Shown one piece after another: positions 7,251 through 28,944 of a stretch of 64,000 bases of DNA. The notes beneath the pieces are model-generated. The model was given only the letters and a program-made list of their open reading frames with translations. It did not search any database and had not been told where the DNA came from. The number at the start of each line of letters is the position of its first letter. The first letter of the stretch is position 1. The translations under genes were made by a program, and so were the position numbers. Source of the stretch: a virus; the IMG/VR virus record IMGVR_UViG_3300017917_002838, positions 1 through 64,000 of that record; one strand, written 5' to 3'.

Positions 7251-7337
7251 TTGTCCTTTTTTCTAGTCAACCGGCTTGACAGAATTGTTTAAATTCTGTT
7301 AAGATTGTATTTACTGTCTCTAAAGGAGGTAATACCA

Positions 7338-7916: not shown

Positions 7917-8134
7917 TTAAAGTTCAAGTTCTAAACGCTTATAAAAAGTTAGCGGAGGAAAATATTGTTCCTCCGCTGCTTTGTCCTTCGGACCAAACTG
8001 ATTTATATCCAAATATAGACGAATCTGACAAGGTGTTTCTTTATTGTTTTTCTTGTACCTATAAAAATTATCTAGGCTTAGAAGCCTATTCTAAAATAGA
8101 AAAAGCTGTTATACAAAATAAAAATATTATATAA
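7904..8134 (+). CDS. Hypothetical Zn-binding protein
   Basis: CPxD...CxxC. Confidence 0.5.
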   Translation: MDSLIKVQVLNAYKKLAEENIVPPLLCPSDQTDLYPNIDESDKVFLYCFSCTYKNYLGLEAYSKIEKAVIQNKNII

Positions 8135-8200
8135 TTGGATTGATGGCACTTAAACAATTTGCCTATATATCTAAGGGGCATCCCCTTAAGAAAAGACGAC

Positions 8201-8434
8201 ATGACCGATTCCTCAACAACGCCAAATTCGGACGGGGTTCAAGAAGAAACTCTGGAAAACAACCTACCTCTAGTAACATACATAATGCTGCATAGAATTT
8301 ATGACCTTTTAGTTGTTATCGGAAAAAATTTAGTCAAGGATGACTCTTTAGACCGATTAATCTCTTATCATGAAAATGGATATTTATTGGGTCCGTCCCC
8401 TAGTTATTCTGAGGATCCTGATGCCAAAAAATAA
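8201..8434 (+). CDS. Hypothetical protein
   Basis: ORF in plus-strand operon; start inferred. Confidence 0.55.
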   Translation: MTDSSTTPNSDGVQEETLENNLPLVTYIMLHRIYDLLVVIGKNLVKDDSLDRLISYHENGYLLGPSPSYSEDPDAKK

Positions 8435-8540
8435 TGGTAAATGCGACCAAGAGGGAACTAGTACTATTGATGATTCAATTGACATGGTTTTAGACTCCGT
8501 TACTTCTTGACTTCAAAATTTACAATTGCTATAATAGTTT

Positions 8541-8611
8541 TAATATAAAGTCGAGCTATGCTCCTTTATGTTATCTAAAACCCCAGAGGAATCCGCCTCC
8601 TCTGGGGTTTT
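8541..8611 (+). ncRNA. Candidate two-hairpin small RNA
   Basis: TTGACT-N17-TATAAT (8507-8535), no ORF, ends in 14-bp hairpin with U tail. Confidence 0.55.
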
Positions 8612-8644
8612 CATATGGATCAATTTTAGAGTATAATAATATAT

Positions 8645-8920
8645 ATGATTAGACACCAAATAAAAGCTTTATCTACAACTATTCCTACAGAGTTAACCAT
8701 AGAAGATAATATAAATTCTGTATGTACTTTAGTGGTTCAAAATATAGACTCTACAAATTATATCTATATTGGAAACAGTTCTGTATCTTCTTCTGACTAT
8801 GGTTTTATGATTTATCCAAATCAAGCTTTTACGATTGAATTAAGACCAAATGATAGAATTTATGGTGTTGGTTCTGCAATAATTAATGCAGTTTGCATGT
8901 CTATAGAAAGATCAACATGA
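8645..8920 (+). CDS. Hypothetical (possible virion) protein
   Basis: VQN...IYIG..VS...YG beta-rich pattern. Confidence 0.55.
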   Translation: MIRHQIKALSTTIPTELTIEDNINSVCTLVVQNIDSTNYIYIGNSSVSSSDYGFMIYPNQAFTIELRPNDRIYGVGSAIINAVCMSIERST

Positions 8921-9552
8921 TTCAAAGTACAGTAGGTTTTACAAATCCACAGGTTACTGCGGCACCGCCTGCATACACAAGCACTGTAAAGCATTTAGTT
9001 AAAAGCGATTATAACGGTACAATCAATAAAGGTCAGGCAGTTTATGTAACTGGCTCTACTGGATTATCTGGAACCAACATGCTGGTAAATAGAGCAAGCA
9101 ATACTATAGAAATGACCTCATCTAAAACTATGGGTCTTCTTGAAACCAGTCTAAATAAGAACGGTATAGGTTATGTAATTACAGAAGGATTGCTTGAAGG
9201 ACTAGATACATCTGCAGCGGGTTCAGCAGGAGATCCAGTATGGCTAGGAGTAGACGGAAACCTGATATATGGATTAACAAATAAACCTGTAGCTCCAGCA
9301 CATTTAGTATTTATAGGAATAGTTACACGTAAGCAGCAAAATAACGGTGAAATCTTCGTTAAGGTTCAAAACGGATTTGAAATAGAAGAACTTCACAATG
9401 TTGTATTAACAGGCAAAACTGCTGGAGATACAATTGTATGGAACGGCGGAAACTGGATTAATAGAAATATAAATGGTGCTACTGGATCTTTTACATCTGC
9501 TGATGGCAAAACAGTTACGGTTACAAACGGAATTATAACCAATATTATCTGA
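8917..9552 (+). CDS. Virion/tail-fibre-like protein
   Basis: KGQAVY..G, GEIFVKVQNGFEIEELHNV, DGKTVTVTNGII motifs. Confidence 0.55.
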   Translation: MIQSTVGFTNPQVTAAPPAYTSTVKHLVKSDYNGTINKGQAVYVTGSTGLSGTNMLVNRASNTIEMTSSKTMGLLETSLNKNGIGYVITEGLLEGLDTSAAGSAGDPVWLGVDGNLIYGLTNKPVAPAHLVFIGIVTRKQQNNGEIFVKVQNGFEIEELHNVVLTGKTAGDTIVWNGGNWINRNINGATGSFTSADGKTVTVTNGIITNII

Positions 9553-13690: not shown

Positions 13691-13734
13691 ATCCCGCCCT
13701 TTCTTGACGTGAAAAATAATTATAGCATTATAGA

Positions 13735-13750
13735 TGTTTCATGTGAAACA
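13735..13750. promoter_or_regulatory. parS-like ParB site
   Basis: TGTTTCATGTGAAACA, 15/16 match to TGTTTCACGTGAAACA, within a 20-bp near-palindrome. Confidence 0.7.
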
Positions 13751-14005
13751 TCGATCTATATTCTAGTCGACTATAATATTCATTTTTAGAAAATGTTAAT
13801 ATATTTTTTATTTGTATGATACCATCCCTGTAAAGCGTGTCCGAATTGGGTAGTGCGCCCATATTGCCCTTTTATTTTGTGAGCCATATCACAAAAAAAG
13901 ATTTCAATTTATACCATATGCCCGAATTTCAGACTTGCGCTTGTCGGGGGTCTATGGTTCACTTAATACATGAACAAGGGACAAGGACTAGAGAAAGGAA
14001 AGAAT

Positions 14006-14369
14006 ATGAAAATCGAAATCCTAAAACCTAAATGCCAAACCTGCGGGTATATCCCAATGGAATCTTGGGATAGAATCTGCCCAAGAGATAAATCGGTAAT
14101 GCGTACCGAATTAGTAGAATTGGAGATGAACTAATGAACACAATTCAATGGATAGGCGCATATTGTGAGGAAGGTTGCCCTGATGAGGCTACCGCTTGCC
14201 TTCTATGCGTAGAAGGTAACGACATCAACGGATACTACGATGAGGAGATGAACTAATGAGCAATATCAAGCGCTACTTAGAAGAAATAGAAGGCGAATCT
14301 TTTAATGAGGCTATGGAGGCCTTGTTAGCCTTCTATCGTCAAGAGCAACTAGAGAAAGAGGGAAAATAA
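14006..14369 (+). CDS. Three coupled mini-ORFs (14006-14134 Zn-ribbon-like; 14134-14256 Cys/acidic; 14256-14369)
   Basis: RBSs and TAATG overlaps, read manually. Confidence 0.6.
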
Positions 14370-14582
14370 ATGAGCGCAACAATTCTTAGTAAATCTAATT
14401 TACTACTAGGCAAGACCTACGAATCAAAGAGAGGGTCAGGTGTTATCGCGGAGGTAACGAATAGCAGACACTATTCACCGCAAGGAACCTCTTATGTAGT
14501 AAGAGTAGAGCAACAAGACGGCGGGGTATTCTTTGCGACAGTAGTAATAGCCGACAATGACGAACTATGGGAGGAGATGTAA
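14370..14582 (+). CDS. Hypothetical small beta-barrel-like protein, paralog of 15535-15744
   Basis: LL.GK.Y...RGSG.I.E...Y.VRV...F.ATV shared. Confidence 0.65.
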   Translation: MSATILSKSNLLLGKTYESKRGSGVIAEVTNSRHYSPQGTSYVVRVEQQDGGVFFATVVIADNDELWEEM

Positions 14583-14584
14583 AT

Positions 14585-14770
14585 ATGTATTCTTTCGATA
14601 ACAATTCACTACTAGATAAGTACGCAACAATTCAGGAGGACGTGTTCGATATGTATAACTATGTAGAAGATGTAGAAGATGAAGAATCAGCGTTAGATTT
14701 TTTCAATGATTCAGACATTGAGGAAGAACAGTTAGACTGGGATGATGTAACTGATTCGATGTTCTTCTAA
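14585..14770 (+). CDS. Highly acidic mini-protein
   Basis: D/E- and aromatic-rich; GGAG RBS. Confidence 0.6.
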   Translation: MYSFDNNSLLDKYATIQEDVFDMYNYVEDVEDEESALDFFNDSDIEEEQLDWDDVTDSMFF

Positions 14771-14811
14771 TAACTAAATAAATAACTAACTACTAACGAA
14801 AGGTAATAACA

Positions 14812-14982
14812 ATGAACAATGGATTCTTAGATATAACGCTAGATAACTGGGGAGTATCTTTCTCTACCGCCCCGTACTACTTTTCCGTATCGTGGGGAGG
14901 CGTAGCGCTTGCCGTAGCCGTAGCCGTAGGCTGGAGGGTGTATCGCCACTTTAGACCCACTAAGCCCTTCTCTTTACTCTAA
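14812..14982 (+). CDS. Small membrane protein (56 aa)
   Basis: GAAAGG RBS; hydrophobic VALAVAVAVGW followed by basic tail. Confidence 0.55.
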   Translation: MNNGFLDITLDNWGVSFSTAPYYFSVSWGGVALAVAVAVGWRVYRHFRPTKPFSLL

Positions 14983-15169
14983 GAGATAACCCATAACCTG
15001 CCACCCGAAAGGGTGGCAAGGCTAAGGGCTAAGGGCTGGGGGGCTCGGTGGATCGCTTACGGGAAATGGTACGATACTCACGGGCAGCTAGCGCCCCCCT
15101 GTAGGTGCGGACTAAATTATTGATTTATGAAGAAGTAAATAAGATCCCTGGCCCGCAGAATAGGGGGCG

Positions 15170-15223
15170 TTTTCCACAGGCTTACGCACAGGTGTGGATA
15201 ACCCTCGAGAAATCTGTGGATAA
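15170..15223. promoter_or_regulatory. DnaA-box cluster
   Basis: TTTTCCACA 15170, TTACGCACA 15182, TGTGGATAA 15193 and 15215. Confidence 0.75.
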
Positions 15224-15534
15224 GCTACGGCGTGTCGCCCACACCGCAAATGTCCGATTTCTCCCAATCCTGCTTACGGGAGTGTCGTAGATCCACTTTG
15301 AAATAGGTGTAAATTTACAGGTTTTTTATTGGGTTTTTTAACACTTAAATTATTGCTATTTTTTACCTATCAAAAAAGCCCAATATTTTCGTGTAACGCA
15401 TTCGGGCGTGTCGAAGGCATGTGAGGCGTATCACAAATTATTTTTCAAGATGCCCGAATTATACGCATTTCTAATTTGATTTTGTCGGTGCGTTCGTGTA
15501 TCTTTGGTATTAGTCAATTAGAAAGAAGGTTCAA

Positions 15535-15744
15535 ATGTCCGCTCTCACATTTTCTCACAAAGGTTTGCTCGTTGGCAAATTCTACCAAGGTTCTCGCGGG
15601 TCTGGAATTATCCAGGAAGCCCAAGATTCAGAGGCTTGGTATGGCAGAGGAATTTCTGCCTATAAAGTTCGCGTTCGTCCTGATTACAAGGGTGATGGAA
15701 TTTATCTCGAAGATTTCTGGGCAACAGTTGCCGTAGAATGTTAG
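15535..15744 (+). CDS. Hypothetical protein, paralog of 14370-14582
   Basis: GAAGG RBS, own promoter. Confidence 0.65.
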   Translation: MSALTFSHKGLLVGKFYQGSRGSGIIQEAQDSEAWYGRGISAYKVRVRPDYKGDGIYLEDFWATVAVEC

Positions 15745-15866
15745 GGGATAACTAACCGAAACGGGGGCAGTTTCGAGAGTGTTCTCGCCCAACGTCGTAA
15801 GTAATAACTCTCACCATTTTTGTCAGCGCCAGATGATACAATTCAGAAATAAACGAAAGGGAAAAA

Positions 15867-16671
15867 ATGAGCCAGATGAAATTATCGTTAGAAAATTTTG
15901 ACGAAATGCTAAACGAAGTTTATGGAGAAATAAATGTTGCGGGCAGTATTTTCACCGCTTCAGATATTCTTAAAAATTGCGATTCTATTGCTTATAGTGT
16001 TTATGCCGCAGATTATTTAAGTTTTGATGAAGAAGAAGGGGAATAAAATGAAAAAATATAAAGTAACCTATGAAACTTTTGTAGAGGCTGAAGATAATCT
16101 TCGTGCCATGTTCAAGGCTAATCATAAATTAGACCCGCTTGGAGATGTTCAGTTTCAGTTTGATGTTGTAGATGTTGAAGAGGTATAAAATGGCAGAGAT
16201 GGAATTTTTTCGTATGGATAGCGAGGGAGCGGGCTGGCTACCGCTCTCTCAAATGAGTAAAGATGAATTTGATGAATTAGAAAAATCAGTTGCGTTTGAG
16301 TTAGAATTTTCCAAATACTTTAGATAAGGGAGAAATAAAAATGGGTAATTTATTAGATGTTATCGGTATCGAATGTATTACATGCGGAACTGCCGGATTT
16401 GTTTTCTATGGTGATGAAGGTATAACAGTTATGCCTTGCGAGTGTGAGGAATAAAAAATGTACACGTTTATAGTTGTATCACTTTCAGTTATTGCTACTC
16501 TAATTGGAGTAGCATTAGCAATTGTATTTTTTGATTTGGAAGAAAATGAAAATTCATAAAAGCATAGTTACAAAGGTTCAAGAGTTGCGTAGAAGTAATG
16601 CAGCTACACCGATCCCGTCTAAAAAAATTTATTCACGAAAGAAAAAACATAGGTTAAAAAAAGAGGAATAA
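15867..16671 (+). CDS. Six mini-ORFs (15867-16046, 16048-16188, 16190-16327, 16341-16454, 16458-16559 membrane, 16546-16671 basic)
   Basis: Tightly packed with purine-rich RBSs, read manually. Confidence 0.6.
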
Positions 16672-16816
16672 ATTCGTGTAACGTAGTCGGGCGTGTCGCG
16701 GCCCCCGCGGGCTTAAAGACTTTGTTACGGAGATCACATTAATTTCACGGGTCTAGGAGTTGCCAATGTCAGTGGCCTGTGTTATCGTTCTCTTACCTGC
16801 TACGAAAGGACTCCAA

Positions 16817-16957
16817 ATGGACGATTTATCTGCTGACCTCTATGGCGACTGGTTCGAGGCTGAGGAATACTCAACCGACGAAGAATATGAGGAGTGGGTC
16901 GATACCGACCTATTCTATGACAATGAACCACCGGCTGATGATATGTGGGGCTTTTAG
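16817..16957 (+). CDS. Highly acidic mini-protein (46 aa)
   Basis: GAAAGGA RBS, own promoter. Confidence 0.65.
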   Translation: MDDLSADLYGDWFEAEEYSTDEEYEEWVDTDLFYDNEPPADDMWGF

Positions 16958-17078
16958 CCCCACTAGGGCCCCGGCGGGCCCCAGTGTGTTGTTACGACAC
17001 GAAAATATTTTAGCCATAAACTTGCGAATGTCGGTTGTTTCTGCTATGGTTCTACCACCAACTACGAAAGGGCCAAAA

Positions 17079-17222
17079 ATGGAAATTTACAACGGCGGCG
17101 AACTCATCGATTTCTCCAACGAGGAGTATTTTGAGGGCATCATCTTTGCTGATGAATGCGATGCGGAGGAGGCTTATTTTGAGTCTCTATGGCTCGAGGA
17201 CCAAGAACAGGAGTGGATATAA
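17079..17222 (+). CDS. Highly acidic mini-protein (47 aa)
   Basis: GAAAGGG RBS, own promoter. Confidence 0.65.
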   Translation: MEIYNGGELIDFSNEEYFEGIIFADECDAEEAYFESLWLEDQEQEWI

Positions 17223-17343
17223 GCCCCTCTGGGGCCCCCGTGGGCTTTTTAATCTTGTTACGGGCATGTGATAATTATCACCGATCTGCAGCTATATTTT
17301 GTCGGTGGCCTCATGTATAATCTAGACTAAGAAAAGGGGAACC

Positions 17344-18060
17344 ATGAAACTAAAACGCTCTAACGATAGGAAGGTAACCAATGCCGTCTCCAAGAATGGA
17401 AAAACACCCGCTATTGCTAATACTTTTGGGCTACCTGCTGGGAAGGATTTCTCATGTCCTGGCGCTACTAGCATCTGCGAAAGTGTCTGCTATGCAGGAA
17501 AACTCGAAAAACTCTACAAGGGAGTAAAAGCCGTACTACTGCATAACTGGGAATTGTTACGCAATGCAGATATGGATACCATGCTACTTTTGATTGATGA
17601 GATGATTGTTGACTTTATTGCAGATTGTGAAAAGAAAAATGCGCCTAAACTCTTCCGTATACACTGGGACGGTGATTTCTTTAATGAAACATATACACAC
17701 GCATGGAGACTAGTAATCATGAACCATCCAGACGTAAAATTCTGGGTCTATACTCGCGTAAAATCTTCTGCCGAGATTCTTCAAGGCTTAGAGAATTTAT
17801 CAGTTTACTATTCTACCGATTCTGAGAATAAAGAAACCGCTCAAGAATTATCTGGTAAAGGCGTAAAACTTGCATACCTTGCAACTACTTTTGCAATGGC
17901 TAAAGAAGATATGCTAAATCTAATTGGAAAATCAGGCGTTAAGTGTCCTGAGAATAATAAAAAGATACCGCTTATTTCTGTAAATGGTTCTGCATGCGTT
18001 ACATGTGGGCAATGCGTATATGAAAGAAACGATATTCTTTTCTCCGCTACTAAAAAATAA
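17344..18060 (+). CDS. GP88-like (radical-SAM-related) protein
   Basis: CPGA..C...CYA, RIH..GDF, YT, C-terminal C..C..C. Confidence 0.7.
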   Translation: MKLKRSNDRKVTNAVSKNGKTPAIANTFGLPAGKDFSCPGATSICESVCYAGKLEKLYKGVKAVLLHNWELLRNADMDTMLLLIDEMIVDFIADCEKKNAPKLFRIHWDGDFFNETYTHAWRLVIMNHPDVKFWVYTRVKSSAEILQGLENLSVYYSTDSENKETAQELSGKGVKLAYLATTFAMAKEDMLNLIGKSGVKCPENNKKIPLISVNGSACVTCGQCVYERNDILFSATKK

Positions 18061-18249
18061 AATAACAAAAACAGTTTTCAATTTCAGTTTTTGATCTTGA
18101 AAATATTTTCAATTTGAAAATTGGGCCCCCATGGGCATTTTGTACCTTTTAAGGCGTGAGATTTATCACACCCGGAAACTGCATCTTGGATTATGCCATG
18201 TCAGTATTAGATGATATAATTTTCGCACAAACAACAAGAAGGGGAAACA

Positions 18250-18543
18250 ATGAAACAACCAACACTACAAGAACTACTAGACGCATGCTCCGATTCTATC
18301 GTTGCTGATGAAATTACAAACGAGGCAAAGACTCTAATCGCAACTCTTCAAGGTTCAGATAATCGTAATCAAATTATCTCAGAATTATTCGAGTATTCTT
18401 CTAGCCTTGCTTCTATGGTACTTACAAATGTACTTCATGTGTTATACACGCACGAACAAGTACAAGAACTAATCAAAGCGCAAGAACAGGCTATGGCCGA
18501 TGAACTAACAAATGAAATATCACAATTCTTAGGGGGTAAATAA
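18250..18543 (+). CDS. Hypothetical protein
   Basis: RBS and own promoter. Confidence 0.65.
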   Translation: MKQPTLQELLDACSDSIVADEITNEAKTLIATLQGSDNRNQIISELFEYSSSLASMVLTNVLHVLYTHEQVQELIKAQEQAMADELTNEISQFLGGK

Positions 18544-18544
18544 T

Positions 18545-18859
18545 ATGGGAAGAAATTTTGCAGAGGCATTATCAAACGTTGAAGGATTAGATATTGAGGA
18601 TGCAATTGCTATGCATCTTCAGTCTAATCACTATCCACCAATTCCAGTTGAAATGGTGACACCATGCATCCAGGCTATTGCTTGCTATAACAATGAATTT
18701 GATATGGATTTGCCTATTGCTCTACCCGAAATTGACGGATTCCAGGTAACTTACAAAGGCAGAACAACTGCACCTGCATGGTCAATTATTGAACAGCATC
18801 ATCTGCATCCATGGCTATATGATTACTATAATGATTATCCAGAAGAGGATGAGGACTAA
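18545..18859 (+). CDS. Hypothetical protein
   Basis: HL.SNHYPP.P, HHL..W. Confidence 0.65.
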   Translation: MGRNFAEALSNVEGLDIEDAIAMHLQSNHYPPIPVEMVTPCIQAIACYNNEFDMDLPIALPEIDGFQVTYKGRTTAPAWSIIEQHHLHPWLYDYYNDYPEEDED

Positions 18860-19079
18860 TGGCAATTTGCGTATCATGTGACGAACAAGGCACTCACGAA
18901 ATTATTGCCAATTCTTTTTATCTTTCAGGAACTTGGTATTGTTGTGCGTGTCTTGGACAATGTAATTGTGAGGATGAAAGCTGATGAAATGTTGGAGTTG
19001 TGATCAAATAATTGATCAAGAAATGGAGGGCTATCACCTGGTTGATGGCTCTCCAACTTGTTGTGAGTGTGAGGACTAA
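18859..19079 (+). CDS. Two Cys-rich mini-ORFs (18859-18984, 18984-19079)
   Basis: CxxC pairs, coupled starts and stops. Confidence 0.55.
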
Positions 19080-19173
19080 GGCCCCCGTGGGCCTAAAAGA
19101 TCTCTTACGACACGATTTGATTAATGTCGGTGCCTTGGTATATAATTCTACTAACTTAAAAGAAAGGGAAAAA

Positions 19174-19425
19174 ATGCTAGATACAACTAACTGGGCAAGA
19201 TACGAGTTTACTATTGGAGGTCTTACTTTTGTTTCGCTTGTAAATCAAGCAGGTACAATTTATCCAAAAGTTTCTATGCTTCCAAGACCAGTTCTTGATG
19301 ACATTAATCGACAAGCAATTCTAAGTTTAGTTGGTAATGTTGAATTTATGACTAGAACAGAAATCCAAGAAAAACTTGCTGAGGCAAACGAGTTCGCAAG
19401 CCAAGCGTTGCTTGAACTGGTCTAA
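19174..19425 (+). CDS. Hypothetical protein
   Basis: GAAAGGG RBS. Confidence 0.65.
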   Translation: MLDTTNWARYEFTIGGLTFVSLVNQAGTIYPKVSMLPRPVLDDINRQAILSLVGNVEFMTRTEIQEKLAEANEFASQALLELV

Positions 19426-19580
19426 TTAATAATAGATAGCGGGTACTTCCCCACCCGCTATCGCCCCCGTGGGCCCAACAACACGCTTACGATCATGTGA
19501 AATTTATCACAGCTTTTGAGCTTGATCTATGTCGGTGGCCTATGCTAGAATATGCTCACAACAAAATAAGGAGGCTAAAA

Positions 19581-19769
19581 ATGGATACACTATCCGTAAA
19601 GACACGACTATATCAGATAGGTGATTTATTTACCACTCTAAAGTCTGGTACTACTGGTGTAATCAAGGAAATCCATAGAACGGGGTCTGGCTCGGCTCGC
19701 GTATTGCTAGATGTTGGCGGTAAAGACCGCTGGACTAGCGTATCGGCTGAAGATTTAGACCTTCGCTAG
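19581..19769 (+). CDS. Hypothetical SH3/KOW-like protein
   Basis: IGD......TGVIKEI pattern; AGGAGG RBS. Confidence 0.6.
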   Translation: MDTLSVKTRLYQIGDLFTTLKSGTTGVIKEIHRTGSGSARVLLDVGGKDRWTSVSAEDLDLR

Positions 19770-19842
19770 TCAATTTGACGACACCTGAGTAAGTGTGATA
19801 AACTGCTCACCAACAAAAACAACAACTATCGAAAGGGAAAAA

Positions 19843-20265
19843 ATGAGTAGAGGCAAAGCGATAAATGTTAAAATCGCTACAAGCAAAGTAATCAAGGCGC
19901 TAGAAACTAAACTAGCGCAAATCAAGAAAACCTATGCTGAGCAAGATGCTCTAGAGGCTAAATACCAAAAGTCTTTAGAAAAGTGGAACAAAGAATTGTT
20001 AGAGTTCGCACTTGCTAATATCAAGAAGGCTAAGAATCTTCGTGTGAATATGCGTAGTTGGGATAAATCGTTAAATGTTGATTTTGATATTCCAACACTT
20101 GATGGAGAGTATCCAAAACAACCACAGCGAGAGTTCGAGCAACTACACACTCACTCATATAACGAGATGGTAGAAGAAATTGAGAACGCAATTCGTATTC
20201 TCAAAATGACCGACGAGGAAGTTGTAAGCACAAGCACATACAACGCAATCGCTCGTTATCTCTAA
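19843..20265 (+). CDS. Hypothetical protein
   Basis: GAAAGGG RBS. Confidence 0.7.
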   Translation: MSRGKAINVKIATSKVIKALETKLAQIKKTYAEQDALEAKYQKSLEKWNKELLEFALANIKKAKNLRVNMRSWDKSLNVDFDIPTLDGEYPKQPQREFEQLHTHSYNEMVEEIENAIRILKMTDEEVVSTSTYNAIARYL

Positions 20266-20393
20266 GTTTCCTATACGCCCCTTTCTGGGGCACACGGGAA
20301 TGAACCTTCCTGAGCAAGAAGCAAAAAGGCTCCCTCACCTAGGCACGTGAAGGCTAAACTGCCTACCATATCCCTACTAGAGAAAGTCAATTA

Positions 20394-20609
20394 ATGACAC
20401 GATTTAAAGTTGAAATCTGGGACGAGATCCCGCAAAATGATATCACCGTTTGGTTAGAAGAGGGCACTGATGCTCGTGGACTGTCTGAAATAGTCTGGTC
20501 CAATTTGAATAAGTTCCAAGGCAATGTAACTGGAGTACTAGTTGACACACTGCATAATAAAAGAAAGTTTGCATGCTACTATCCCATGGAGATTGTCTCA
20601 TCCAGGTAA
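20394..20609 (+). CDS. Hypothetical protein
   Basis: ORF with RBS. Confidence 0.6.
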   Translation: MTRFKVEIWDEIPQNDITVWLEEGTDARGLSEIVWSNLNKFQGNVTGVLVDTLHNKRKFACYYPMEIVSSR

Positions 20610-20746
20610 GAATGCAGCTCCGTACCCCTTTCGGAGCTGCGCCCCCTAGGGCGATATGTCCGTTTTACGATAGCTAAAAAGATCACCAGGCTTGCGAATG
20701 TCAGTCTTATCTGGTATTATTCTCGAATCAACTAAGAAAGGAAAAA

Positions 20747-21754
20747 ATGGCTCACAATCTCGAAACCGAAAATGGCGAAGTTGCTTTTGCTTTGCGGGGC
20801 GCTCCTGCTTGGCACAATCTTGCTAATCGTATTTTCTCAAAAGATGAGGAAGTATCAACTCAACTAATGCTAACAGAGGCTAAACTTTCTAATTGGAATG
20901 TTCGCCTCTCTCCAGTAACCGACCACATTCCTGCTGAATGGAATGATGTATCAGGTTCGCAATATGTTATTCGTACTAATCCATTTAATCAAGGAACTGA
21001 TGTTTTATCTGTTGTCGGTTCTCGATATCAAGTAATTCAGAATGAGGAATTATTTTCATTCGCTGATAATATCCTAGACGGTGATTCTCGTTGTGCTTGG
21101 GAATCTGCTGGCTCCTTAAAGTCAGGCAAGGTTGTATTCGGTTCTCTTACTGTTCCTCGTGAAATGGTATTAGACCCACAAGGCGCTAATGATAAGACTC
21201 AGTTATATCTTATCGTTTGGACATCTCATGACGGTTCTGTTGCTGTTCAAGCAGCGATTACACCAGTTCGTGTAGTTTGCCAAAACACCCTTAATCTTGC
21301 TATGAAGTCTGCTAAGCAGTCATTCAAGATTCGTCACACTCAATCTGCTGATGGAAAGATTCAAGTAGCACGAGAAACTCTTGGATTAACATTTCAATAC
21401 TTTGATGAATTTGAGAAAGAGGCTCAATCTCTATTTTCTCAAAGCATTACTGATGTAGAGTTCTCAAAACTTATTCAGACTATTTATCCAAAGCCTGATA
21501 AAGATACAAAGAATGCTATCACCCGCTGGGAAAATAAGGTTGTTATGCTTGATGACCTTTATCACAATTCCCCGACTAATGCTAATATCAAGGGAACAAA
21601 GTGGGGTGCGTTCAATGCGTTAACCGAGCGTTTGGATTATTACCGAAATGGTAAAGGTTCTAATTCAGATTCTCGTTATGCTTCCGCTTCAGGTTTCGAC
21701 CCTGTTATTACCGCTGAAAAGAATAAGATTCTTCAGGCTGTAAAAGCGTTCTAA
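20747..21754 (+). CDS. DUF932-family phage/plasmid protein
   Basis: PAWH.L, Y..IQN, ESAGSL, SHDGS, TPVRVVC.NTL, GT.WGAFNA.TE. Confidence 0.85.
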   Translation: MAHNLETENGEVAFALRGAPAWHNLANRIFSKDEEVSTQLMLTEAKLSNWNVRLSPVTDHIPAEWNDVSGSQYVIRTNPFNQGTDVLSVVGSRYQVIQNEELFSFADNILDGDSRCAWESAGSLKSGKVVFGSLTVPREMVLDPQGANDKTQLYLIVWTSHDGSVAVQAAITPVRVVCQNTLNLAMKSAKQSFKIRHTQSADGKIQVARETLGLTFQYFDEFEKEAQSLFSQSITDVEFSKLIQTIYPKPDKDTKNAITRWENKVVMLDDLYHNSPTNANIKGTKWGAFNALTERLDYYRNGKGSNSDSRYASASGFDPVITAEKNKILQAVKAF

Positions 21755-21793
21755 TCGCAACACCTGAGCAAGTGTCTAAACTGCTCACCAATT

Positions 21794-21867
21794 GGTTCGT
21801 TAGCTTAGTTGGATAAAGCGCTACCCTGTCACGGTAGAGATCACGGGTTCAAGTCCCGTACGAATCG
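21794..21867 (+). tRNA. tRNA-Asp(GTC)
   Basis: GGTTCGT/ACGAATC acceptor, CTGTCAC loop, GTTCAA; no CCA. Confidence 0.9.
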
Positions 21868-21978
21868 CCCCCTAGGGCCACAAAAATGTGTTACGAATCA
21901 CAAAATATTCCCCCCAAAAAGTAGACAAGTGTCAGTCCGGTAGTGTACAATTCTCCGCATACCAACGAAAGGAAAGAA

Positions 21979-22443
21979 ATGGAACAAACAACAAACAAGT
22001 TTGATAATGTTCAACCTTGGGAAGCAAAAGAGTTTCTTCAGCAACTAGATGAGAAACTAACTATCAAAGACGAAATTATCGTTGATTTAGATAAGCGTGT
22101 TTGGGAATTGAAAGAATCATTAGCAAAGGCTCAGGAAGATACTTCCAAGATTTTCAATAAATTTACTACATTGAAAGAATCTATCTTCTCTCTACTCGAT
22201 AATAATCGTGAGGGAGATGAAATTGAAATTACATTAGACGAGGCTAATGACTTTTTATATGCTAATGGTATTCAAACTATCAAGACTACCTACTCAGTTC
22301 ATTTTACAATTACTGGCGTTCTTGAAATCGAAGCAAGTAATGAAGATGAGGCCGAGCGTGAAGCCAGCGATGTTGATGTATCACATCATATGGGCGAAAT
22401 CACAGAGTTTGACGTTACCATAGATAGCGTGGAACAAGAGTAA
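21979..22443 (+). CDS. Acidic coiled-coil hypothetical protein
   Basis: GAAAGGA RBS. Confidence 0.65.
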   Translation: MEQTTNKFDNVQPWEAKEFLQQLDEKLTIKDEIIVDLDKRVWELKESLAKAQEDTSKIFNKFTTLKESIFSLLDNNREGDEIEITLDEANDFLYANGIQTIKTTYSVHFTITGVLEIEASNEDEAEREASDVDVSHHMGEITEFDVTIDSVEQE

Positions 22444-23034
22444 TGCTATATCAACTACAGGCACCTAACAAGTCCGCTTTCAATTTATCTGTGTTCGAGG
22501 CGGACTTGGCTGGACTAGACCCAGAATATGATACAAAAAACCTAACAATGGAAATTGGAACAGGTAAAGTAGAGAAGGTAAGAAACCTTATCATTAAATA
22601 CAAACTAATGGTATTATTTGAGAAGGAGTACGGATATAGTAATGAAGCATATATCCGAGCAGGCAAAGAAGGAAGAATCCTGAAAGGTGGAGTAAATCTA
22701 CAATGAACTATAAAGAAGGTTATATAGATGGATATAGGCAAGCACGGGAAGATATTGCCGAATCCTTAAGAAAACTTGTAGATGACCTAGATGAGCATTA
22801 TTCTGAACTAGTAGATGACCTAGCAGATAAATTGGAGGCTGGCAGTATATGAGCGAATGGATCGGTTGCGATAAATGTAGTGTTGCTGTTGCTCTTTATC
22901 AAGTTAAAGGAATCGAGGGTGAGTTATTTTTCTGCCACCACCACTTCCAGGAGAACGAAGAAAAATTAAGAACCTGGGCATTTGAAGTAATAGACCTAAA
23001 GGCTGAGGTTTTAGAAGAAGAACCTGTTGTTTGA
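22443..23034 (+). CDS. Three small hypothetical ORFs (22443-22706, 22703-22852, 22849-23034 with CDxC..FCxHH)
   Basis: Coupled ORFs. Confidence 0.6.
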
Positions 23035-23065
23035 CAATAAAATACTGGTCAACTATAATAAAAGA

Positions 23066-23173
23066 ACCAACCGTTAGGTGGAGCTATCAGCTTAATGCGA
23101 GCTAGTTCTTAAATATAGCATTCCCAGTATGCAGCCTAACAGTTACAGGCCCTCTTGATCAGAGGGCCTTTTT
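23066..23173 (+). ncRNA. Candidate structured small RNA
   Basis: TTGACA-N17-TATAAT (23031-23059), no ORF, intrinsic terminator 23147-23173. Confidence 0.6.
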
Positions 23174-23424
23174 AATGCCCACTCGGGCGAATAAATCTTC
23201 TTACGGCCCCCTTGGGCGATATTTCCGATTTATGACAATGTGTTTTAGATCACAGGATTTTGTGTAGACAAATGTCAGTGGTGCGTTATATAATTAGGGC
23301 ATGAACAAATTACCGACAAATTGGCGGAGAATGTCGGAAGCCGACAAAGATGCTTTTATATTGTCATATCATACTGGTAAAATGTTTTGTAATTGCACAA
23401 ACTGTATAAACGAAAGGGAAAATA

Positions 23425-24156
23425 ATGCCAAATTGGGTATTCAATACCTTGACAATTCAAGGTAATAAATCAGAAGTAGATTATATCAAAGATAAACTAA
23501 ATGAACCATTTACTCGTCAATACGATAATTGGAATATGGAAACACAAAAAATGGAAATTCAAGAAACTACCTATAGCAATCCTGTATTTTCATTTTGGAA
23601 TATCGTTCGTCCTACCGACCTCGAATCATATGTAAAACAACCTGAACATTCCACGGGTCAAACAATATCTGAAATCTTTTCAGGTAATGATTGGTATTCT
23701 TGGAATGTAAGAAATTGGGGAACCAAATGGGATGTTGCTGTTAGTGATAATAATAAATATACTGATACGGTATTAGTTGAGCATAAGTCAGAAGGTGAAG
23801 ACCAATGGCTTGTATATAAATTTGATACTGCTTGGTCCCCTCCTGTTTCTGCATTAGAAAGTTTATCTGAATTAGTTCCTAATTGTGTAGTAACTTTAGA
23901 TTGGCAGGAAGAGCAGGGATTTGGTGGACAAATAGAATTTATCCGAGGAGATGTAACTGCTGAATCTGATTATGAATCTAGATGTTATGACTGTGATGCA
24001 ATTGACACAATGGAGTATTGTGAAAATGACTGTGGTCAAATCTGTTCTAAATGTAATAATCTTGGCGAAGCCGACCTAGATTGTGTTGCAGAATGTCAGG
24101 ACCATAAGATATACTTGGAGACCAATGTACCCGATTATAGAAAGGCGGACCTATGA
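23425..24156 (+). CDS. DUF1281/YubB ferredoxin-like protein with Cys-rich tail
   Basis: MPNW, WY.W...NWGTKW, FDTAWSPP. Confidence 0.75.
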   Translation: MPNWVFNTLTIQGNKSEVDYIKDKLNEPFTRQYDNWNMETQKMEIQETTYSNPVFSFWNIVRPTDLESYVKQPEHSTGQTISEIFSGNDWYSWNVRNWGTKWDVAVSDNNKYTDTVLVEHKSEGEDQWLVYKFDTAWSPPVSALESLSELVPNCVVTLDWQEEQGFGGQIEFIRGDVTAESDYESRCYDCDAIDTMEYCENDCGQICSKCNNLGEADLDCVAECQDHKIYLETNVPDYRKADL

Positions 24157-25293
24157 GTTTCTTGGATGAAGAAAACCAGCAAGTTGTAGATTTAATTATT
24201 CAAGAAGTTGCTGAGGCATTATTTGAAGAATGGAATAATGCCAATTTAGATGAAGGCGATCTTTATGCAGATTATCAAATTCTAAATCATGCTGGAAGCA
24301 ATTACTTATATGGCAGATTCAATCAATACTACGATTTGAAACCAGGCGATGAATATTATATTGAATGGGACGAGGAGGCATAATGCTAGGATATACTGAA
24401 AAAGATCTAAACGATATGATTAATGGTGTCCTGGTCTCTTTGGACGCGACAAATCCGGAAGAGACTGATATAATTAGGCAACTAAATATGGCAAACGATT
24501 TCTTACAAGGCCTTTGGGCGGAAGGATATTTTGACTAATGGGAATGTATGACCAATCATGGTGTGTCTCGTGTGGAGCAGGAATGCTCTATACAGAGGAT
24601 GAAAATGTTACATGCTACAGATGTGACCAGGAAGAATATAACAAGCTCGAAACACGAGTATCTAGGTTTATGGAATATATTAAACTATATGTTATTAGTC
24701 TAGAGCAAGACGCAGATAGATTAGAAGAATTAAAACAAAACTTTCAAGGCGACTATGATTCAGAAGAATATGAGAATATAGTTCTTGATGACTACTATAA
24801 TACTGGAGAGCTTATTGCTTCCCGCCATTTATTGTCAGTAGCACAAAATATGATTGGTCAAAAGGAAAGGGAGGAAGTATGAGAGAGCTGAATATAAGTC
24901 CACGTCTACAAAAACTTATAGATAATGGAATCGATTCATTGGATATTATGCACGGTGAGCTTAAGAATCTAATGGTTGAAGCCGAGAAAGAATTAGAGGC
25001 AGCTATAGAGGAAGAAGAGCGTACCGAGGAGGCAATGGATTCCATGGAGCGCAAATATTGGGAGGGCCAGTTAGACGCTCTATCAATTGTTTATTCATTA
25101 ACATACAAACTATCATTTGCAAGAAAGGATTAATATGTACTTAACAAATGAATTCGTTCAACGTGAACTTGCCAGGGCACAACAGCTGCTTTGGGGAAGA
25201 TCTGAGACAGAGAATATCGAAGCTCATAATATCGTAGCTGCATTGCTTGTTGATCTAGAACGGGCGGGCAATAGGGCTTACGGGCTAAATTGA
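24153..25293 (+). CDS. Five mostly acidic hypothetical ORFs (24153-24383, 24383-24538, 24538-24882, 24879-25133, 25135-25293)
   Basis: Coupled ORFs with RBSs. Confidence 0.6.
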
Positions 25294-25361
25294 TGACTTA
25301 CGGTATATTGACAAAATTCACGGGCACGTTATATAATTAACCACCAATAGAAAGGAAAAAA

Positions 25362-25721
25362 ATGGGAGATAGAATAGTTTACTCGATTAAGCAAGATAGC
25401 AATTTGTCTATAAATCTATACAGTCATTGGGGAGGTTATGGACGATTTGAACTTCTTGCTAAGGCTTTAAACAAAGCTAGGCCTAGATGGGATGACACAT
25501 CCTATGCCACCCGCATTATTGTTTCGCAGCTTATAGGAGACGGATGGGATGACGAGACTGGTTTTGGTTTATGGGCCAGCAATGAACATGGTGCATATGG
25601 AGGAGACCATCCAGACATTATTATTAATCTAATTAATAAAACTGTAGAGGATGAAACTGGTGTACATGATTTTGATAAGTTTATCGATTATCATCTATCG
25701 AAGGTAGCTGCTAATGGCTAA
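25362..25721 (+). CDS. Hypothetical protein
   Basis: TTGACA-N18-TATAAT promoter, GAAAGGA RBS, Y.HW.G motif. Confidence 0.7.
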   Translation: MGDRIVYSIKQDSNLSINLYSHWGGYGRFELLAKALNKARPRWDDTSYATRIIVSQLIGDGWDDETGFGLWASNEHGAYGGDHPDIIINLINKTVEDETGVHDFDKFIDYHLSKVAANG

Positions 25722-26046
25722 AAAGAAATTAGATCTATCTGATATTGAACATATTGGAAGTTTTATGGTTGACAGCGGTCAAGCTATTATAGGTGACCCG
25801 TGCTATTTAGATGAATGGAATCCTAACACAAATGATGACTTCGAACCCGAAATATATGCAGGCGAATACGGTTACCTAGGAGCATGTCAAGCAACCCTCT
25901 CAGAAGCTGGAGGAGGCACCATAGGAATGAGCTCTGCAGTTGCAGTGTCAACTGGATGGGGCGACGGTGTCTATCCTGTCTACGTAAGGCGTGGAGAAGA
26001 TGATCGTATTATGCAAGTTATTATAGACTTCGAAGGGGTAATCTAA
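25714..26046 (+). CDS. DUF4241-like protein
   Basis: VDSGQ..IGDPCY, TGWGDG.YPV. Confidence 0.7.
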   Translation: MAKKKLDLSDIEHIGSFMVDSGQAIIGDPCYLDEWNPNTNDDFEPEIYAGEYGYLGACQATLSEAGGGTIGMSSAVAVSTGWGDGVYPVYVRRGEDDRIMQVIIDFEGVI

Positions 26047-26159
26047 GATTCGTAGGGCGGAAAAAATGTCTTACGATCATAACTAAATAATGGCGGGACT
26101 CATATTTACAATACCTGTACAATATGATAAAATTACAGTGTCTATGAAAGGACATAAAA

Positions 26160-26306
26160 ATGACAACAAAGCGAGACTATCTAAAGTCTAAGGGCATCAC
26201 AGTTGGAGCCCGTGGCCGTTTCTCAGGAGCTGCAAAGCAAGCTCTTCAGGAGGCCGCAAAGCAAGGCATTCAGTTCTCTGACGAGAAGTCTTCTGCAAAG
26301 AAGTAA
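26160..26306 (+). CDS. Lsr2-like DNA-binding mini-protein (48 aa)
   Basis: RDYL...GITV.ARGRF resembles the Lsr2 RGR AT-hook domain; not in ORF track. Confidence 0.65.
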   Translation: MTTKRDYLKSKGITVGARGRFSGAAKQALQEAAKQGIQFSDEKSSAKK

Positions 26307-26309
26307 TAA

Positions 26310-26773
26310 ATGCCAGCAATGAAATCCAGGAGGGGTCCTCGTCCAAAGGACCTGGACCTCTCGTGGTCAATTGGATCCAAAGCTATTAATCGGCGGAAGC
26401 TCGAGAAGCAGCGTGAAATAGATCTATATAATAGTTTGTGTGGACCGGTTACGGTCTCATATATTGAACCCAAATTGACAAACCCGAACAGATAGGATAG
26501 GATATCACAATGGCTAAGTCTAAAGATGAAAAGTTGGCGGAACAGTTTATCGAAGCCTTATCCAACCACTATTTTGATACACCAGGATTTGCCAATAAAC
26601 TAGTTACATTTGCTCCACATTATACAATAGATAAACTAGTCCAAGTTATAGAACATATTATTCTATTTGGATATCATAGGCAAAAACAGGATTGGGAGAA
26701 TAATTCAGTAACATCTCCAGGCCTAATCACCCTAAGAGATTGGAAGATTCTCCTAGATGAAAGGAATATATAG
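26310..26773 (+). CDS. Two hypothetical ORFs (26310-26495, 26510-26773)
   Basis: ORF track. Confidence 0.5.
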
Positions 26774-26833
26774 AACCCCTACTTCTATGTGTTCCTAATT
26801 AGGATGTGTTAATTCCCTTTCTTCATCCTAATT

Positions 26834-26869
26834 AATATCCCCCCAAACGTCCTTCGGGGGGATATTTTT
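26834..26869 (+). terminator. Intrinsic terminator closing the island
   Basis: AATATCCCCCC/GGGGGGATATT stem followed by T run. Confidence 0.7.
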
Positions 26870-27326
26870 ATGCCCAAAAATAATTGATCTGATCTACATC
26901 AAATAGCTACGGGCCTATGGGCCCAAATTCGCTTTTACGATCAATATAGATAAATCACTGGAAATATATAGCAATATGTCGACAAATCTATTAAAATATA
27001 TATAGAATATCTCAGAATGTGAGACAAATAGATTAAAATGATCTCAAAATATGAGATTATCTACCAGAATTGTGGGCGAATTGTCCGTTTTACGGGCATA
27101 TTTCCACAAACACTGGCACATATAGAAGGTATATATATGGACAAAATATCACATATTGGACTAAAAATAAGATTATGATCTCATTATATGAGACGCTTTA
27201 TTACCTATATATAAATTTATCGACAATACATAGTATTAGCAAGATAATCCATAGTATGAAATCCTTATGAGTATTCTCTAGAATGGTCTTTAAAATTGAT
27301 ATAAGGCCATTAGAGAGGACGGGGGA

Positions 27327-28944
27327 TTAGGAGTTATCTGCTATCCCTTGATCAATATAGAGCTCTCCATTTGGTCCTATAGAATATTGCAAAGCCATAG
27401 ATTGACCACATTTGAGACAATATGGCTCAAAGTCTAGATCTTTACTAATCTCTATATGCATTTGGGCATTACAGGGACATATATAGTTATATGTCTTATA
27501 TCCATCAAATATGTATAATGTCATTATTGATAAAGTGTAGGGTAGAGGTCTTTCTCGGATAACCCCCGCCATTTATTTTAGTTGTATAATCAATTGTGGC
27601 TACGAGATTATCGGCTATATCGTTAAAATAATATCGATTATCGATAAGTCTCCAACTACGCCAGCCGTCTGGTTCTTCCCAGAAATAATTCATTTTACTG
27701 GTTTTCATCCATCTCCTCCAATTGTTTAGCAAATTCCTTAGTTTCTAGACATTGGCGACAAAGCCATTCTAAATTGCCGATCTCGGCATAGGCGAATAGT
27801 CCTGTTCGCAAACAATATTTACAGCGCATTTTCTTCTCTCTCGTCGCCGCACTTTTCGCCAGCTAATATATAGTCAGTATTATCCATATAAGGGGGATAT
27901 AAAGCATTAGCTATTTGAGTATATAGTTCAGGTTGAGATACCTCTATACTGTCTATAATAGCCATAGCAGCCTCCATACGGTCAATATAGATGCCTTCTC
28001 TTTCATCTGATGCAAAGTATAGCTCTCTATAGGTTTCCCGCTCTTTTTTAACCCTATGTAATTGATCTAATAAATCAATTATTATTTCTTTATATTTATT
28101 TTTAGATGATCCAATCATGCTTCCGCCTTTTCTATTTTGTATCCACTCTGGTCTAGGATATGAATAATATACTGTGCCATCCTTCTAGGTTCGTCTGGTA
28201 GGCCATATTGGTATTGTTTATATAGGCCTTCCTGAAGTATATAAAATGGCGTATCTTTATTCATTACTTATCCTCTTTATCTTTTCTATAAGACTTTCTT
28301 TTCGGTGCTTGCTTACCTACATTAATATAGGTTTCTCGTCTAATTCCGTGCTTATTATAATCAACTCGTACTTCCGGCTTAGCTGTTTTGGGCTTTTCTT
28401 CTTCCATAACAAATCACCTCAACTCTTTTTCAATGGCCTGAATTGTTGGGCAAGGATAGTTAGTCATTTCGCAAGCCATACACATTCCATAGTCGTCTGA
28501 GTGCAATTCTGCTACCGCACGAAGAGCTTTAGTTGGAGCAATAAACTCGACTGGATGACCTATTCTTTTTAGCAATTCATCGTGTGTCATTTGACATCTC
28601 ATTCATATCGTCTATCCAACTATTTATTGTTACAGAGTTTCCAGCCATAATCAATAGCTCCCAAACTCTATGGCATTTTTCACACATACAATTTGGGTCA
28701 TAGGCATTTCCCCATCTAGATTCGTCGTGTATCATTATTATTCCTGGTCAAGCATACTTTTCATATTCCACCAGTTTGCCGGGTGGTCTATATCCACATC
28801 CCCGTGTTCATGTGAATTATCCATAATATCTTCAATATCTTGTTCTATCTTATTTAATTTATTAAGTAATAATAATGTATAAATAAAATTAATAGCTACT
28901 GCCATTACGATCAATACGTTAAATATCATTGGTTCCTTTCGCAA
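27327..28944 (-). CDS. Run of small hypothetical ORFs (e.g. 27819-28118, 28414-28602, 28738-28944)
   Basis: ORF track plus overlapping mini-ORFs; starts uncertain. Confidence 0.5.

Follow-up and report, generated by a model that had tools for sequence, protein, structure and literature searches.

A strand-inverted array of PafBC-type promoters as the probable early host-interaction arm of a freshwater phage

The stretch of DNA analysed here (the window) comprises positions 1 to 64,000 of the IMG/VR virus contig IMGVR_UViG_3300017917_002838, of which it is the first part. Nearly all open reading frames (ORFs) of this 104,555-bp contig lie on the minus strand, and the segment from about 13.7 to 27.3 kb, referred to below as the island, is its only long plus-strand block, in agreement with the initial annotation of the window, which had described a strand-inverted block of 13.6 kb. 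The island is probably (at roughly 60%) an early host-interaction arm, consisting of at least a dozen short transcription units that encode some 40 mostly tiny proteins and are read by means of regulators of the host. Its units begin with promoters that match the actinobacterial PafBC consensus, many of them with CRP-type palindromes at helically phased distances upstream, and the arrangement is conserved in related phages. A search of IMG/VR with the island's DUF932 protein brings up 197 related stretches, and the best 80 of these 197 were examined (the relatives; contigs of up to about 120 kb, 1.3 Mb of sequence in total).

Promoters of the island

The pattern TGTCRGTG-N8-TANNNT occurs six times in the window, against 0.10 expected from shuffled sequences, and all six belong to the plus strand of the island. 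With the relaxed pattern TGTC(A/G)G-N10-TANNNT, 13 of the 14 plus-strand matches in the genome are found in the island, and a single minus-strand match lies outside it. Every intergenic promoter is followed, 20-35 nt on, by a strong ribosome-binding site (RBS) and then by one to six small genes; the GAAAGG form of the RBS is enriched about four-fold in the island, with 21 copies against 5.2 expected from its length. In the relatives the strict motif is present 614 times on the coding strand and not once on the opposite strand, and the relaxed motif 1183 times as against 3. The logo of 838 unique promoter copies from the relatives reads AAATGTCAGTGGc..taTGnTATAAT, corresponding to a -26 element and an extended -10 box. 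There is no conserved -35 in this logo, and only aAA stands ahead of the -26 element.

The published PafBC consensus is tGTCgg(N10)tA(N3)T, in which the -26 element is read by PafB and is combined with a SigA -10 box and no -35 (PMC8635444); its GTC triplet is nearly invariant across the Actinobacteria (PMC8635444). PafBC is activated by single-stranded DNA (PMC11804915). The phage motif matches the consensus in both sequence and spacing. With PafBC-dependent (RecA-NDp) promoters it shares the GTC triplet, the distance to the SigA-type -10 box and the lack of a conserved -35; it differs from them in being borne by a phage, in forming arrays of 10-19 per genome, in the extended -10 (TGn) and in the CRP-type sites upstream. 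In the searchable literature we found no report of phage-borne PafBC promoters, nor of PafBC-class promoters combined with phased CRP sites, DnaA boxes and parS.

Regulators of the candidate host

A scan of 185,579 species genomes with the strict promoter pattern gave ten matches, eight of them chance occurrences outside the Actinobacteria and two in mis-binned phage fragments, and so afforded no direct view of host promoters. Island fragments of the clade, with 73-95% identity, are present in an Ilumatobacteraceae metagenome-assembled genome (MAG; G006:C140, L153) and in an Actinomycetota MAG (G007:C195, L154); these short contigs are binning contaminants, or possibly a hint at the host. The candidate host order was sampled around one MAG of 1.3 Mb that carries a mis-binned phage fragment.

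All 41 genomes of this order in which it was sought (1.2-2.2 Mb) contain a tandem pair of WYL proteins of 300-345 amino acids, the pafB-pafC arrangement, and each of 11 genomes out of 11 has one Crp-type protein of 230 amino acids. The recA gene is preceded, in about 20 genomes out of 25, by TGTCAGTGGC-N6-TACCTT, which is directly followed by a LexA box. The phage consensus and the recA promoter of the candidate order agree fully in the ten-base -26 element TGTCAGTGGC, in its distance from the -10 box and in two bases that flank it. In the phage proteins, no WYL, HTH_Crp_2 or ParB_N domain was found. From the match to the consensus, the identity with the host recA promoter and a phage without WYL, Crp-type or ParB-type domains, we infer that the promoters are of the host-PafBC type and that the palindromes are sites for the host Crp.

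The motif AACGGCGTGTCG was considered as a separate host motif and rejected, as it is not enriched over a reversed control in the 41 genomes; at recA it is a degenerate variant of the PafBC-type promoter. Several candidate-order genomes of 1.2-1.5 Mb have a second motif, cGTCG..-N-TACCTT, about 100 nt downstream of the recA promoter (L308-L331, the regions ahead of recA in 24 genomes, and L159), which looks like a two-promoter arrangement resembling the mycobacterial one.

Palindromes and other sites upstream of the promoters

All three perfect copies of TGTGA-N6-TCACA in the genome are in the island. The same holds when one mismatch is allowed, with nine copies (three perfect and six with one mismatch) against 2.25 expected. 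In the relatives there are 478 perfect copies in the 1.3 Mb, and 517 of 549 CRP-type boxes are located less than 200 bp upstream of a promoter. The spacing from the centre of the box to the -10 element falls into the classes 41/42, 51/52, 61/62, 72/73 and 83/84, a step of about 10.4 bp, and these classes survive when orthologous cassettes are collapsed into 52 independent clusters. Perfect palindromes upstream of a core promoter, at steps of about 10.4 bp, are likewise a feature of class I CRP-dependent promoters, from which the phage cassettes differ in having a partner promoter of the PafBC type.

A further element, with the form GCCC-N2-8-GGGC followed after about 13 nt by TTACGR, has 11 plus-strand matches in the island (among them two variants nested in neighbouring copies) and no match outside it. 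It stands at the boundaries between units, and the order of a cassette, read in the sequence, is hairpin, TTACGR, CRP box, promoter, GAAAGG and ATG. The 3' end of the island's tRNA-Asp (T-stem and acceptor strand) is GCCCCCTAGGGC, the same as the boundary hairpin at 20641, and it is followed by the usual spacer and then by TTACGA (21793-21896). The boundary elements might derive from the 3' ends of tRNAs, or the tRNA might double as one of them.

Three DnaA boxes are situated within 55 bp, 22-23 bp apart, with an AT-rich stretch of 73 nt (GC 0.23) 80 nt downstream of them. A cluster of at least three DnaA boxes is found at the equivalent place, between hairpin and promoter, in 13 of the 80 relatives. 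Among the relatives, six different contigs (7 loci) have a perfect parS 16-mer close to where the array begins, compared with about 0.0005 expected by chance. GACAC boxes are present 25 times in the island against 10.9 expected. The GGCGTGTCG / CGACACGCC boxes (15404-15413, 16689-16698, 15229-15238), which are the GACAC boxes of the initial annotation, contain the GTC core of the PafBC element without a -10 box; in the relatives such boxes are reversed in orientation and concentrated some 25-30 nt ahead of promoters. As ideas only, GACAC boxes may be read by WhiA or may provide a second PafBC contact. The strings CGACAC/GTGTCG, GGCGTG and GTTACG/TTACGG are enriched 5-6-fold upstream of the promoters of the relatives.

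In the initial annotation, PafBC, CRP, DnaA, parS, GACAC and GGGC/TTACG sites were said to be concentrated in the inverted block, in a cassette running from boundary element through CRP box and PafBC promoter to a GAAAGG RBS. The counts given above bear this out, each of these sites being enriched in the island or confined to it, and the order of the cassette can be read directly. The architecture, proposed there as a feature to be sought in related genomes, is conserved in the 80 relatives with the strand polarity described above.

Kinship with Stanwilliamsviridae

The large terminase subunit (TerL; 47229-49019) shows 60-62% identity to that of the cluster BK Streptomyces phages (62% to Gilson) and 57% to its counterpart in the BE1 phage Jay2Jay. 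By tblastn, about 45 ORFs are colinear with Jay2Jay at 22-65% identity, over a span that includes ribonucleotide reductase, portal, capsid, tape measure, DnaB, primase, Pol III alpha, UvsX, TerL and WhiB. On account of the TerL identity and of these colinear ORFs, the phage is a freshwater relative of the Stanwilliamsviridae. When the island was compared with GenBank phages by megablast, nothing matched. The TerL gene is about 40 kb from the portal gene, beside an HNH-like ORF and tRNAs, as in Stanwilliamsviridae; the protein is not recognised by Pfam, and PHROGs match it weakly.

Phages of cluster BE1 have terminal repeats of 10.7-11.5 kb, defined by read starts and doubled coverage, with 20-25 small ORFs that include an lsr2-like gene (PMC5764925). 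The repeat of Jay2Jay is 10,778 bp long. The DUF932 protein of the island shares 51% identity with Jay2Jay gp5, a gene that each BE1 record contains in two copies on account of its place in the terminal repeat, and the gp88-like protein is 50% identical to gp10, also inside the Jay2Jay repeat; the two island genes have the same order as gp10 and gp5. On a collapsed circular map of Jay2Jay, the repeat occupies exactly the slot of the island, after the point where the right arm stops and before that where the left arm begins. In position, and in three genes, the third being Lsr2-like, a type of gene also found in that repeat, the array is homologous to the 10.8-kb terminal-repeat cassette array of BE1. 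Comparison with the BE1 repeat (Jay2Jay, Samisti12; Boydwoodruffvirinae) shows a similar set of 20-25 small genes with spacers of 70-130 bp, inverted with respect to the long arm and containing the gp88-like and DUF932 homologues in order and an lsr2-like gene, in the same slot of a colinear genome. The GC content differs (36-40% here, 50% in BE1), and the island directly adjoins the divergent switch, whereas BE1 has 7 kb more of unique inverted genes.

Cluster BK (Gilson, BillNye; Loccivirinae) has the closest TerL, the same gene order and a long array of small genes beside the genome end. However, the BK repeat measures only 766 bp, and the array of small genes runs in the direction of the right arm. 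BK has one copy of the DUF932 homologue, some 21 kb away from the genome end, and a search for gp88 homologues in BK found none. In the cluster A mycobacteriophages, gp88 homologues are located near the right ends of the genomes. The right-end arm of these phages is expressed early. Long terminal repeats are also known from T5 (10.1 kb) and SPO1 (13.2 kb; sizes quoted in PMC5764925). The pre-early or host-takeover modules of T5 and SPO1 resemble the island in their many small genes and combine strong promoters for the host polymerase with a long terminal repeat; no homology to the island was detected. Neither T5 nor SPO1 is known to use a DNA-damage activator of the host.

Genome ends

The initial annotation took the island to be possibly a long terminal repeat that is injected first. 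The 'direct terminal repeat' recorded for the contig is an exact overlap of 99 bp, of the kind by which an assembler signals a circular graph. Every assembly contains the island once, the end repeats of four near-complete relatives are overlaps of 55-127 bp or are missing, and none of five further relative records has two copies of DUF932. Both models predict these observations, since a collapsed repeat and a unique region look alike in such assemblies. The Stanwilliamsviridae package their DNA with direct terminal repeats, and the kinship of TerL predicts defined ends, but not the length of a repeat, which is labile within the family, as the 766 bp of Gilson and the 10,778 bp of Jay2Jay show. 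No terminus motif shared with the ends of Jay2Jay or Gilson was found, and a 104-kb linear relative (G052) did not resolve the physical termini.

It is possible but doubtful that the island in its entirety (about 13.7-27.3 kb) is a direct terminal repeat which was collapsed in assembly, and which is present at both DNA ends and enters first, as in T5, SPO1 or BE1. Such a repeat is compatible with the reading as an early arm, to which it adds a statement on where the DNA ends. It would agree with the kinship to the Jay2Jay TerL, with the place of the island in the slot of the BE1 repeat amid some 45 colinear genes, with the two colinear homologues from inside that repeat, with the lsr2-like gene in both and with the inversion of the island relative to the right arm, as in BE1; a collapse would moreover yield exactly the circular single-copy assembly that is seen. 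These points of kinship and synteny give the earlier proposal real, though indirect, backing. Against it are the shortness of the overlaps, in this contig as in the relatives, and the single copy of DUF932 in all near-complete relatives where it was found, as well as the BK phages, which are closest in TerL (62%) but have a 766-bp repeat and a DUF932 gene outside it. In addition, assemblies break up at various places in the distal half of the island, which is what a microdiverse region would cause. Alternatively, the genome may have defined ends at the convergent junction at about 26.8-27.3 kb, with a short repeat or none, making the island a unique terminal arm, a reading we also regard as rather unlikely; we give it about the same odds as the long repeat and leave the remainder to other arrangements. 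Gilson, the best TerL match, has its exact 766-bp repeat at the equivalent junction, and by synteny this junction corresponds to the genome ends of both Jay2Jay and Gilson; it is a non-coding stretch of 553 nt with repeated palindromes. Ten of 50 truncated relative contigs stop in the junction, two independent ones within 1 nt of each other in a G-rich motif and a third about 15 nt before it (L084, L063, L103). Yet most whole contigs that have the motif run through it, the clustering of contig ends is weak and was noticed post hoc, and other ends are scattered through the distal island. This contig and three relatives circularise with the junction internal, and the orientation and gene content of the island are nearer to BE1 than to BK. 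The G-rich motif may mark a physical DNA end or a site at which assemblies break. In the relatives, three CTCCAC repeats and a hairpin precede this motif, GGGAGGGGGATATAGG (L085:16360-16390).

Proposed role and alternative explanations

As an early host-interaction arm, the island would work as follows. Each unit starts with a promoter for the housekeeping sigma factor, having a good and often extended -10 box and the PafBC -26 element instead of a conserved -35. Unmodified host RNA polymerase with SigA would initiate at these promoters soon after entry, with PafBC, loaded with single-stranded DNA from the ends of incoming or attacked linear DNA or from replication forks, making up for the absent -35 contact. 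About half of the units have a CRP/GlxR-type palindrome upstream, and these would be modulated by Crp-cAMP sitting a further one to four helical turns ahead of the promoter. DnaA may modulate one unit or mark an origin, the parS site at the start of the array may recruit the host ParB, and the GC hairpins with their TTACGR tail separate the units. Early phage expression would in this manner be coupled to the DNA-damage and nutritional state of the host. The proteins of the island would act on host processes, the Lsr2-like mini-protein being a plausible counter-silencer of Lsr2.

More tentatively, and as somewhat less likely than not, we propose that a widespread freshwater clade has built its whole early array on PafBC 'sigma adaptation' promoters together with CRP, DnaA and parS sites, that single-stranded DNA is the trigger, and that the replicated array drains the activator. 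At least about 200 contigs of freshwater phages keep the arrangement (80 examined among 197 confirmed stretches). Early arrays have been described in the terminal regions of T5, SPO1 and BE1, and the wiring is what this island adds. If the proposal is true, dependence on PafBC would be shown for a phage promoter class for the first time, and the class would provide a natural handle on the biology of PafBC, CRP, ParB and DnaA in uncultured, streamlined Actinobacteria. If the sites are read as they look, the first transcription is tied to the damage and cAMP signals of the host, which gives a testable model for the timing of infection by phages of slow-growing, streamlined freshwater Actinobacteria. 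The kinship described above also links an abundant uncultured clade to the cultured Stanwilliamsviridae, where terminal repeats, early expression, DUF932, gp88 and the Lsr2-like protein can be studied.

Several observations weigh against this host-regulator reading. In a number of the promoters in the window, a plausible hexamer TTGNNN stands 17-18 nt ahead of the -10 box, and so these might fire without PafBC. Among the CRP-type boxes there is an extra spacing class of 57/58, a half-turn away and on the opposite helical face, and the positions inferred for the other boxes (about -54, -64, -74 and -85, with the transcription starts assumed) are 2-3 bp off those of E. coli class I promoters; the palindromes could be operators of an unrecognised phage repressor. 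The only link to the host consists of the two mis-binned fragments in actinobacterial MAGs and the phage WhiB gene. Finally, no PafBC-type or CRP-type motifs were found in the terminal regions of Jay2Jay and Gilson, so that the wiring is specific to the clade.

It is also conceivable, though improbable in our view, that TGTCAGTGG and the TGTGA-N6-TCACA elements are read by proteins of the phage itself, such as an unrecognised DNA-binding protein, WhiB or a virion factor; in a variant of this explanation the palindromes are operators that shut the array off, or the promoters are a middle rather than an early set. Most island proteins have no known function, repeated operators are common in phages, WhiB is encoded by the phage, and GYGTGTCS and TTACGR have no assigned reader. 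On the other hand, the phage sites share the -26 element, its distance from the -10 box and even both flanking bases with the candidate-order recA promoter and also match the PafBC consensus, TGTGA-N6-TCACA is the CRP/GlxR consensus and is helically phased as activator sites are, and the parS and DnaA boxes match consensus sequences of the host, while the phage has no WYL, Crp or ParB domain. Another explanation would make the sites mainly decoys, which replication multiplies and which titrate PafBC, CRP, DnaA and ParB, blunting the damage response and replication or segregation. There are six strict (13 relaxed) PafBC-type sites in about 10 kb, compared with about ten strict non-phage matches in the 1.3-Mb candidate host MAG (six in the reversed control), and isolated GYGTGTCS boxes with the GTC core occur without a -10 box. 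Nevertheless, nearly all PafBC-type sites are oriented with a -10 box, an RBS and a gene, and each genome has just one parS site and one cluster of DnaA boxes. We regard the decoy explanation as very improbable. On the basis of the near-absolute strand polarity and of the coupling to -10 box, RBS and gene, we argue that the PafBC-type sites are working promoters, not decoys; titration could be a side effect of such promoters.

Genes and boundaries of the island

A crude gene call guided by Shine-Dalgarno sequences gives about 41 plus-strand genes, 34 of which encode fewer than 100 amino acids, at a coding density of about 75%. The main features are collected in Table 1. The initial annotation had counted about 45 mostly tiny ORFs; their small size is confirmed, and the count is somewhat lower here. 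For most of the small proteins no Pfam or PHROG function was found. Comparison among the relatives shows a conserved core of genes accompanied by numerous lineage-specific tiny ORFs.

Table 1. Positions of the main features of the island within the 64,000-nt window.
Feature	Position	Strand	Remarks
Left (proximal) boundary	13691..14005		divergent, non-coding, from the S-adenosylmethionine (AdoMet) decarboxylase gene (minus) to the first island gene; GC 0.35; contains the parS-like site, CRP-type box 13878-13893 and a degenerate TGTCGG promoter at ~13942
parS-like palindrome	13735..13750		15/16 to TGTTTCACGTGAAACA, mismatch at centre
First gene group	14006..14982	+	six tiny ORFs (37-70 amino acids), mostly unique to this phage
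Control region	14983..15534	+	552 nt, non-coding
DnaA-box matches (three)	15170..15223		starts 15170, 15193, 15215; TTTTCCACA, and TTATCCACA twice on the minus strand
Intergenic promoters (11), TGTC(A/G)G-N10-TAnnnT	15483..23294	+	20-35 nt upstream of a GAAAGG-type RBS; starts 15483, 15821, 16767, 17029, 17300, 18199, 19125, 19530, 20699, 21930, 23273
CRP/GlxR-type palindromes	17267-17282, 18155-18170, 19496-19511		also 13878-13893, 15420-15435
One-mismatch CRP-type variants	16723, 21887, 23239		
Boundary elements (starts)	16701, 16968, 17234, 19081, 19463, 20641, 21867, 23177, 23206	+	looser: 18125, 26919, 27073
gp88-family protein (PF17338)	17344..18060	+	
DUF932 protein	20747..21754	+	best-conserved island gene, in 80/80 relatives
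tRNA-Asp(GTC)	21793..21870	+	
DUF7455 protein	22849..23034	+	in 74/80 relatives
Api92-like protein	23425..24156	+	DUF1281_C ferredoxin-like domain; in 64/80 relatives
DUF4241-like protein	25714..26046	+	
Lsr2-like mini-protein	26160..26306	+	48 amino acids, RGR motif; matches phrog_6269; in 51/80 relatives
Right (distal) boundary	26774..27326		553-nt non-coding convergent junction; GC 0.33
Intrinsic-terminator-like hairpin	26837..26869	+	after the last island gene; 8-bp G/C-rich stem and T run
Junction motif counterpart	27320..27333		CGGGGGATTAGGAG; conserved form in relatives GGGAGGGGGATATAGG

The control region contains, besides the DnaA-box trio, a hairpin with a GNRA cap, GGCTAAG repeats, GYGTGTCS boxes, the CRP-type box at 15420-15435 and the promoter at 15483-15504. 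Alignment shows that a homologous region is kept in the relatives. Of the structured RNAs mentioned in the initial annotation, its weakest claim, the tRNA-Asp is present and was the only hit of an Rfam search. One spacer (14983-15300) folds better than its shuffled versions (z = -2.7), whereas the spacer at 20.27-20.64 kb does not (z = -1.1).

The RGR motif of the Lsr2-like mini-protein resembles that of the DNA-binding domain of Lsr2. Downstream of this 48-codon ORF, the region to 26498 has two in-frame stops followed by an ORF of 61 amino acids without a family match. The segment 26160-26498 could represent an Lsr2-like gene that was split or truncated; alternatively, it could encode a deliberate competitor of the host Lsr2 with a single domain.

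Both boundaries of the island are non-coding, as had been annotated, and are richer in AT than the island (0.35 and 0.33 as compared with a GC content of 0.40); their description as AT-rich holds relative to the island only, as they are close to the genome mean of 0.36. The right boundary contains two loose boundary elements and three ATCTCA-N5-6-TGAGA palindromes (27009-27195), which could be operators, origin iterons or packaging signals.

Other products of the phage are WhiB, Pol III alpha, DnaB, a class II ribonucleotide reductase and a UvsX-like recombinase, as well as a portal, a protease and a capsid protein. An ORF of 819 amino acids at 40.7-43.2 kb was considered as a polymerase; this identity was dropped, and the product is a PA14/fn3 protein. 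A second, small plus-strand block is present at 7305-9552, in which the ORFs 7904-8134 and 8159-8434 match the genes g36 and g27 of the unique inverted block of Jay2Jay. Because of these two matches, the ancestral inverted arm seems to be divided here by minus-strand genes that span about 4 kb (AdoMet decarboxylase, GDSL lipase and tRNAs).

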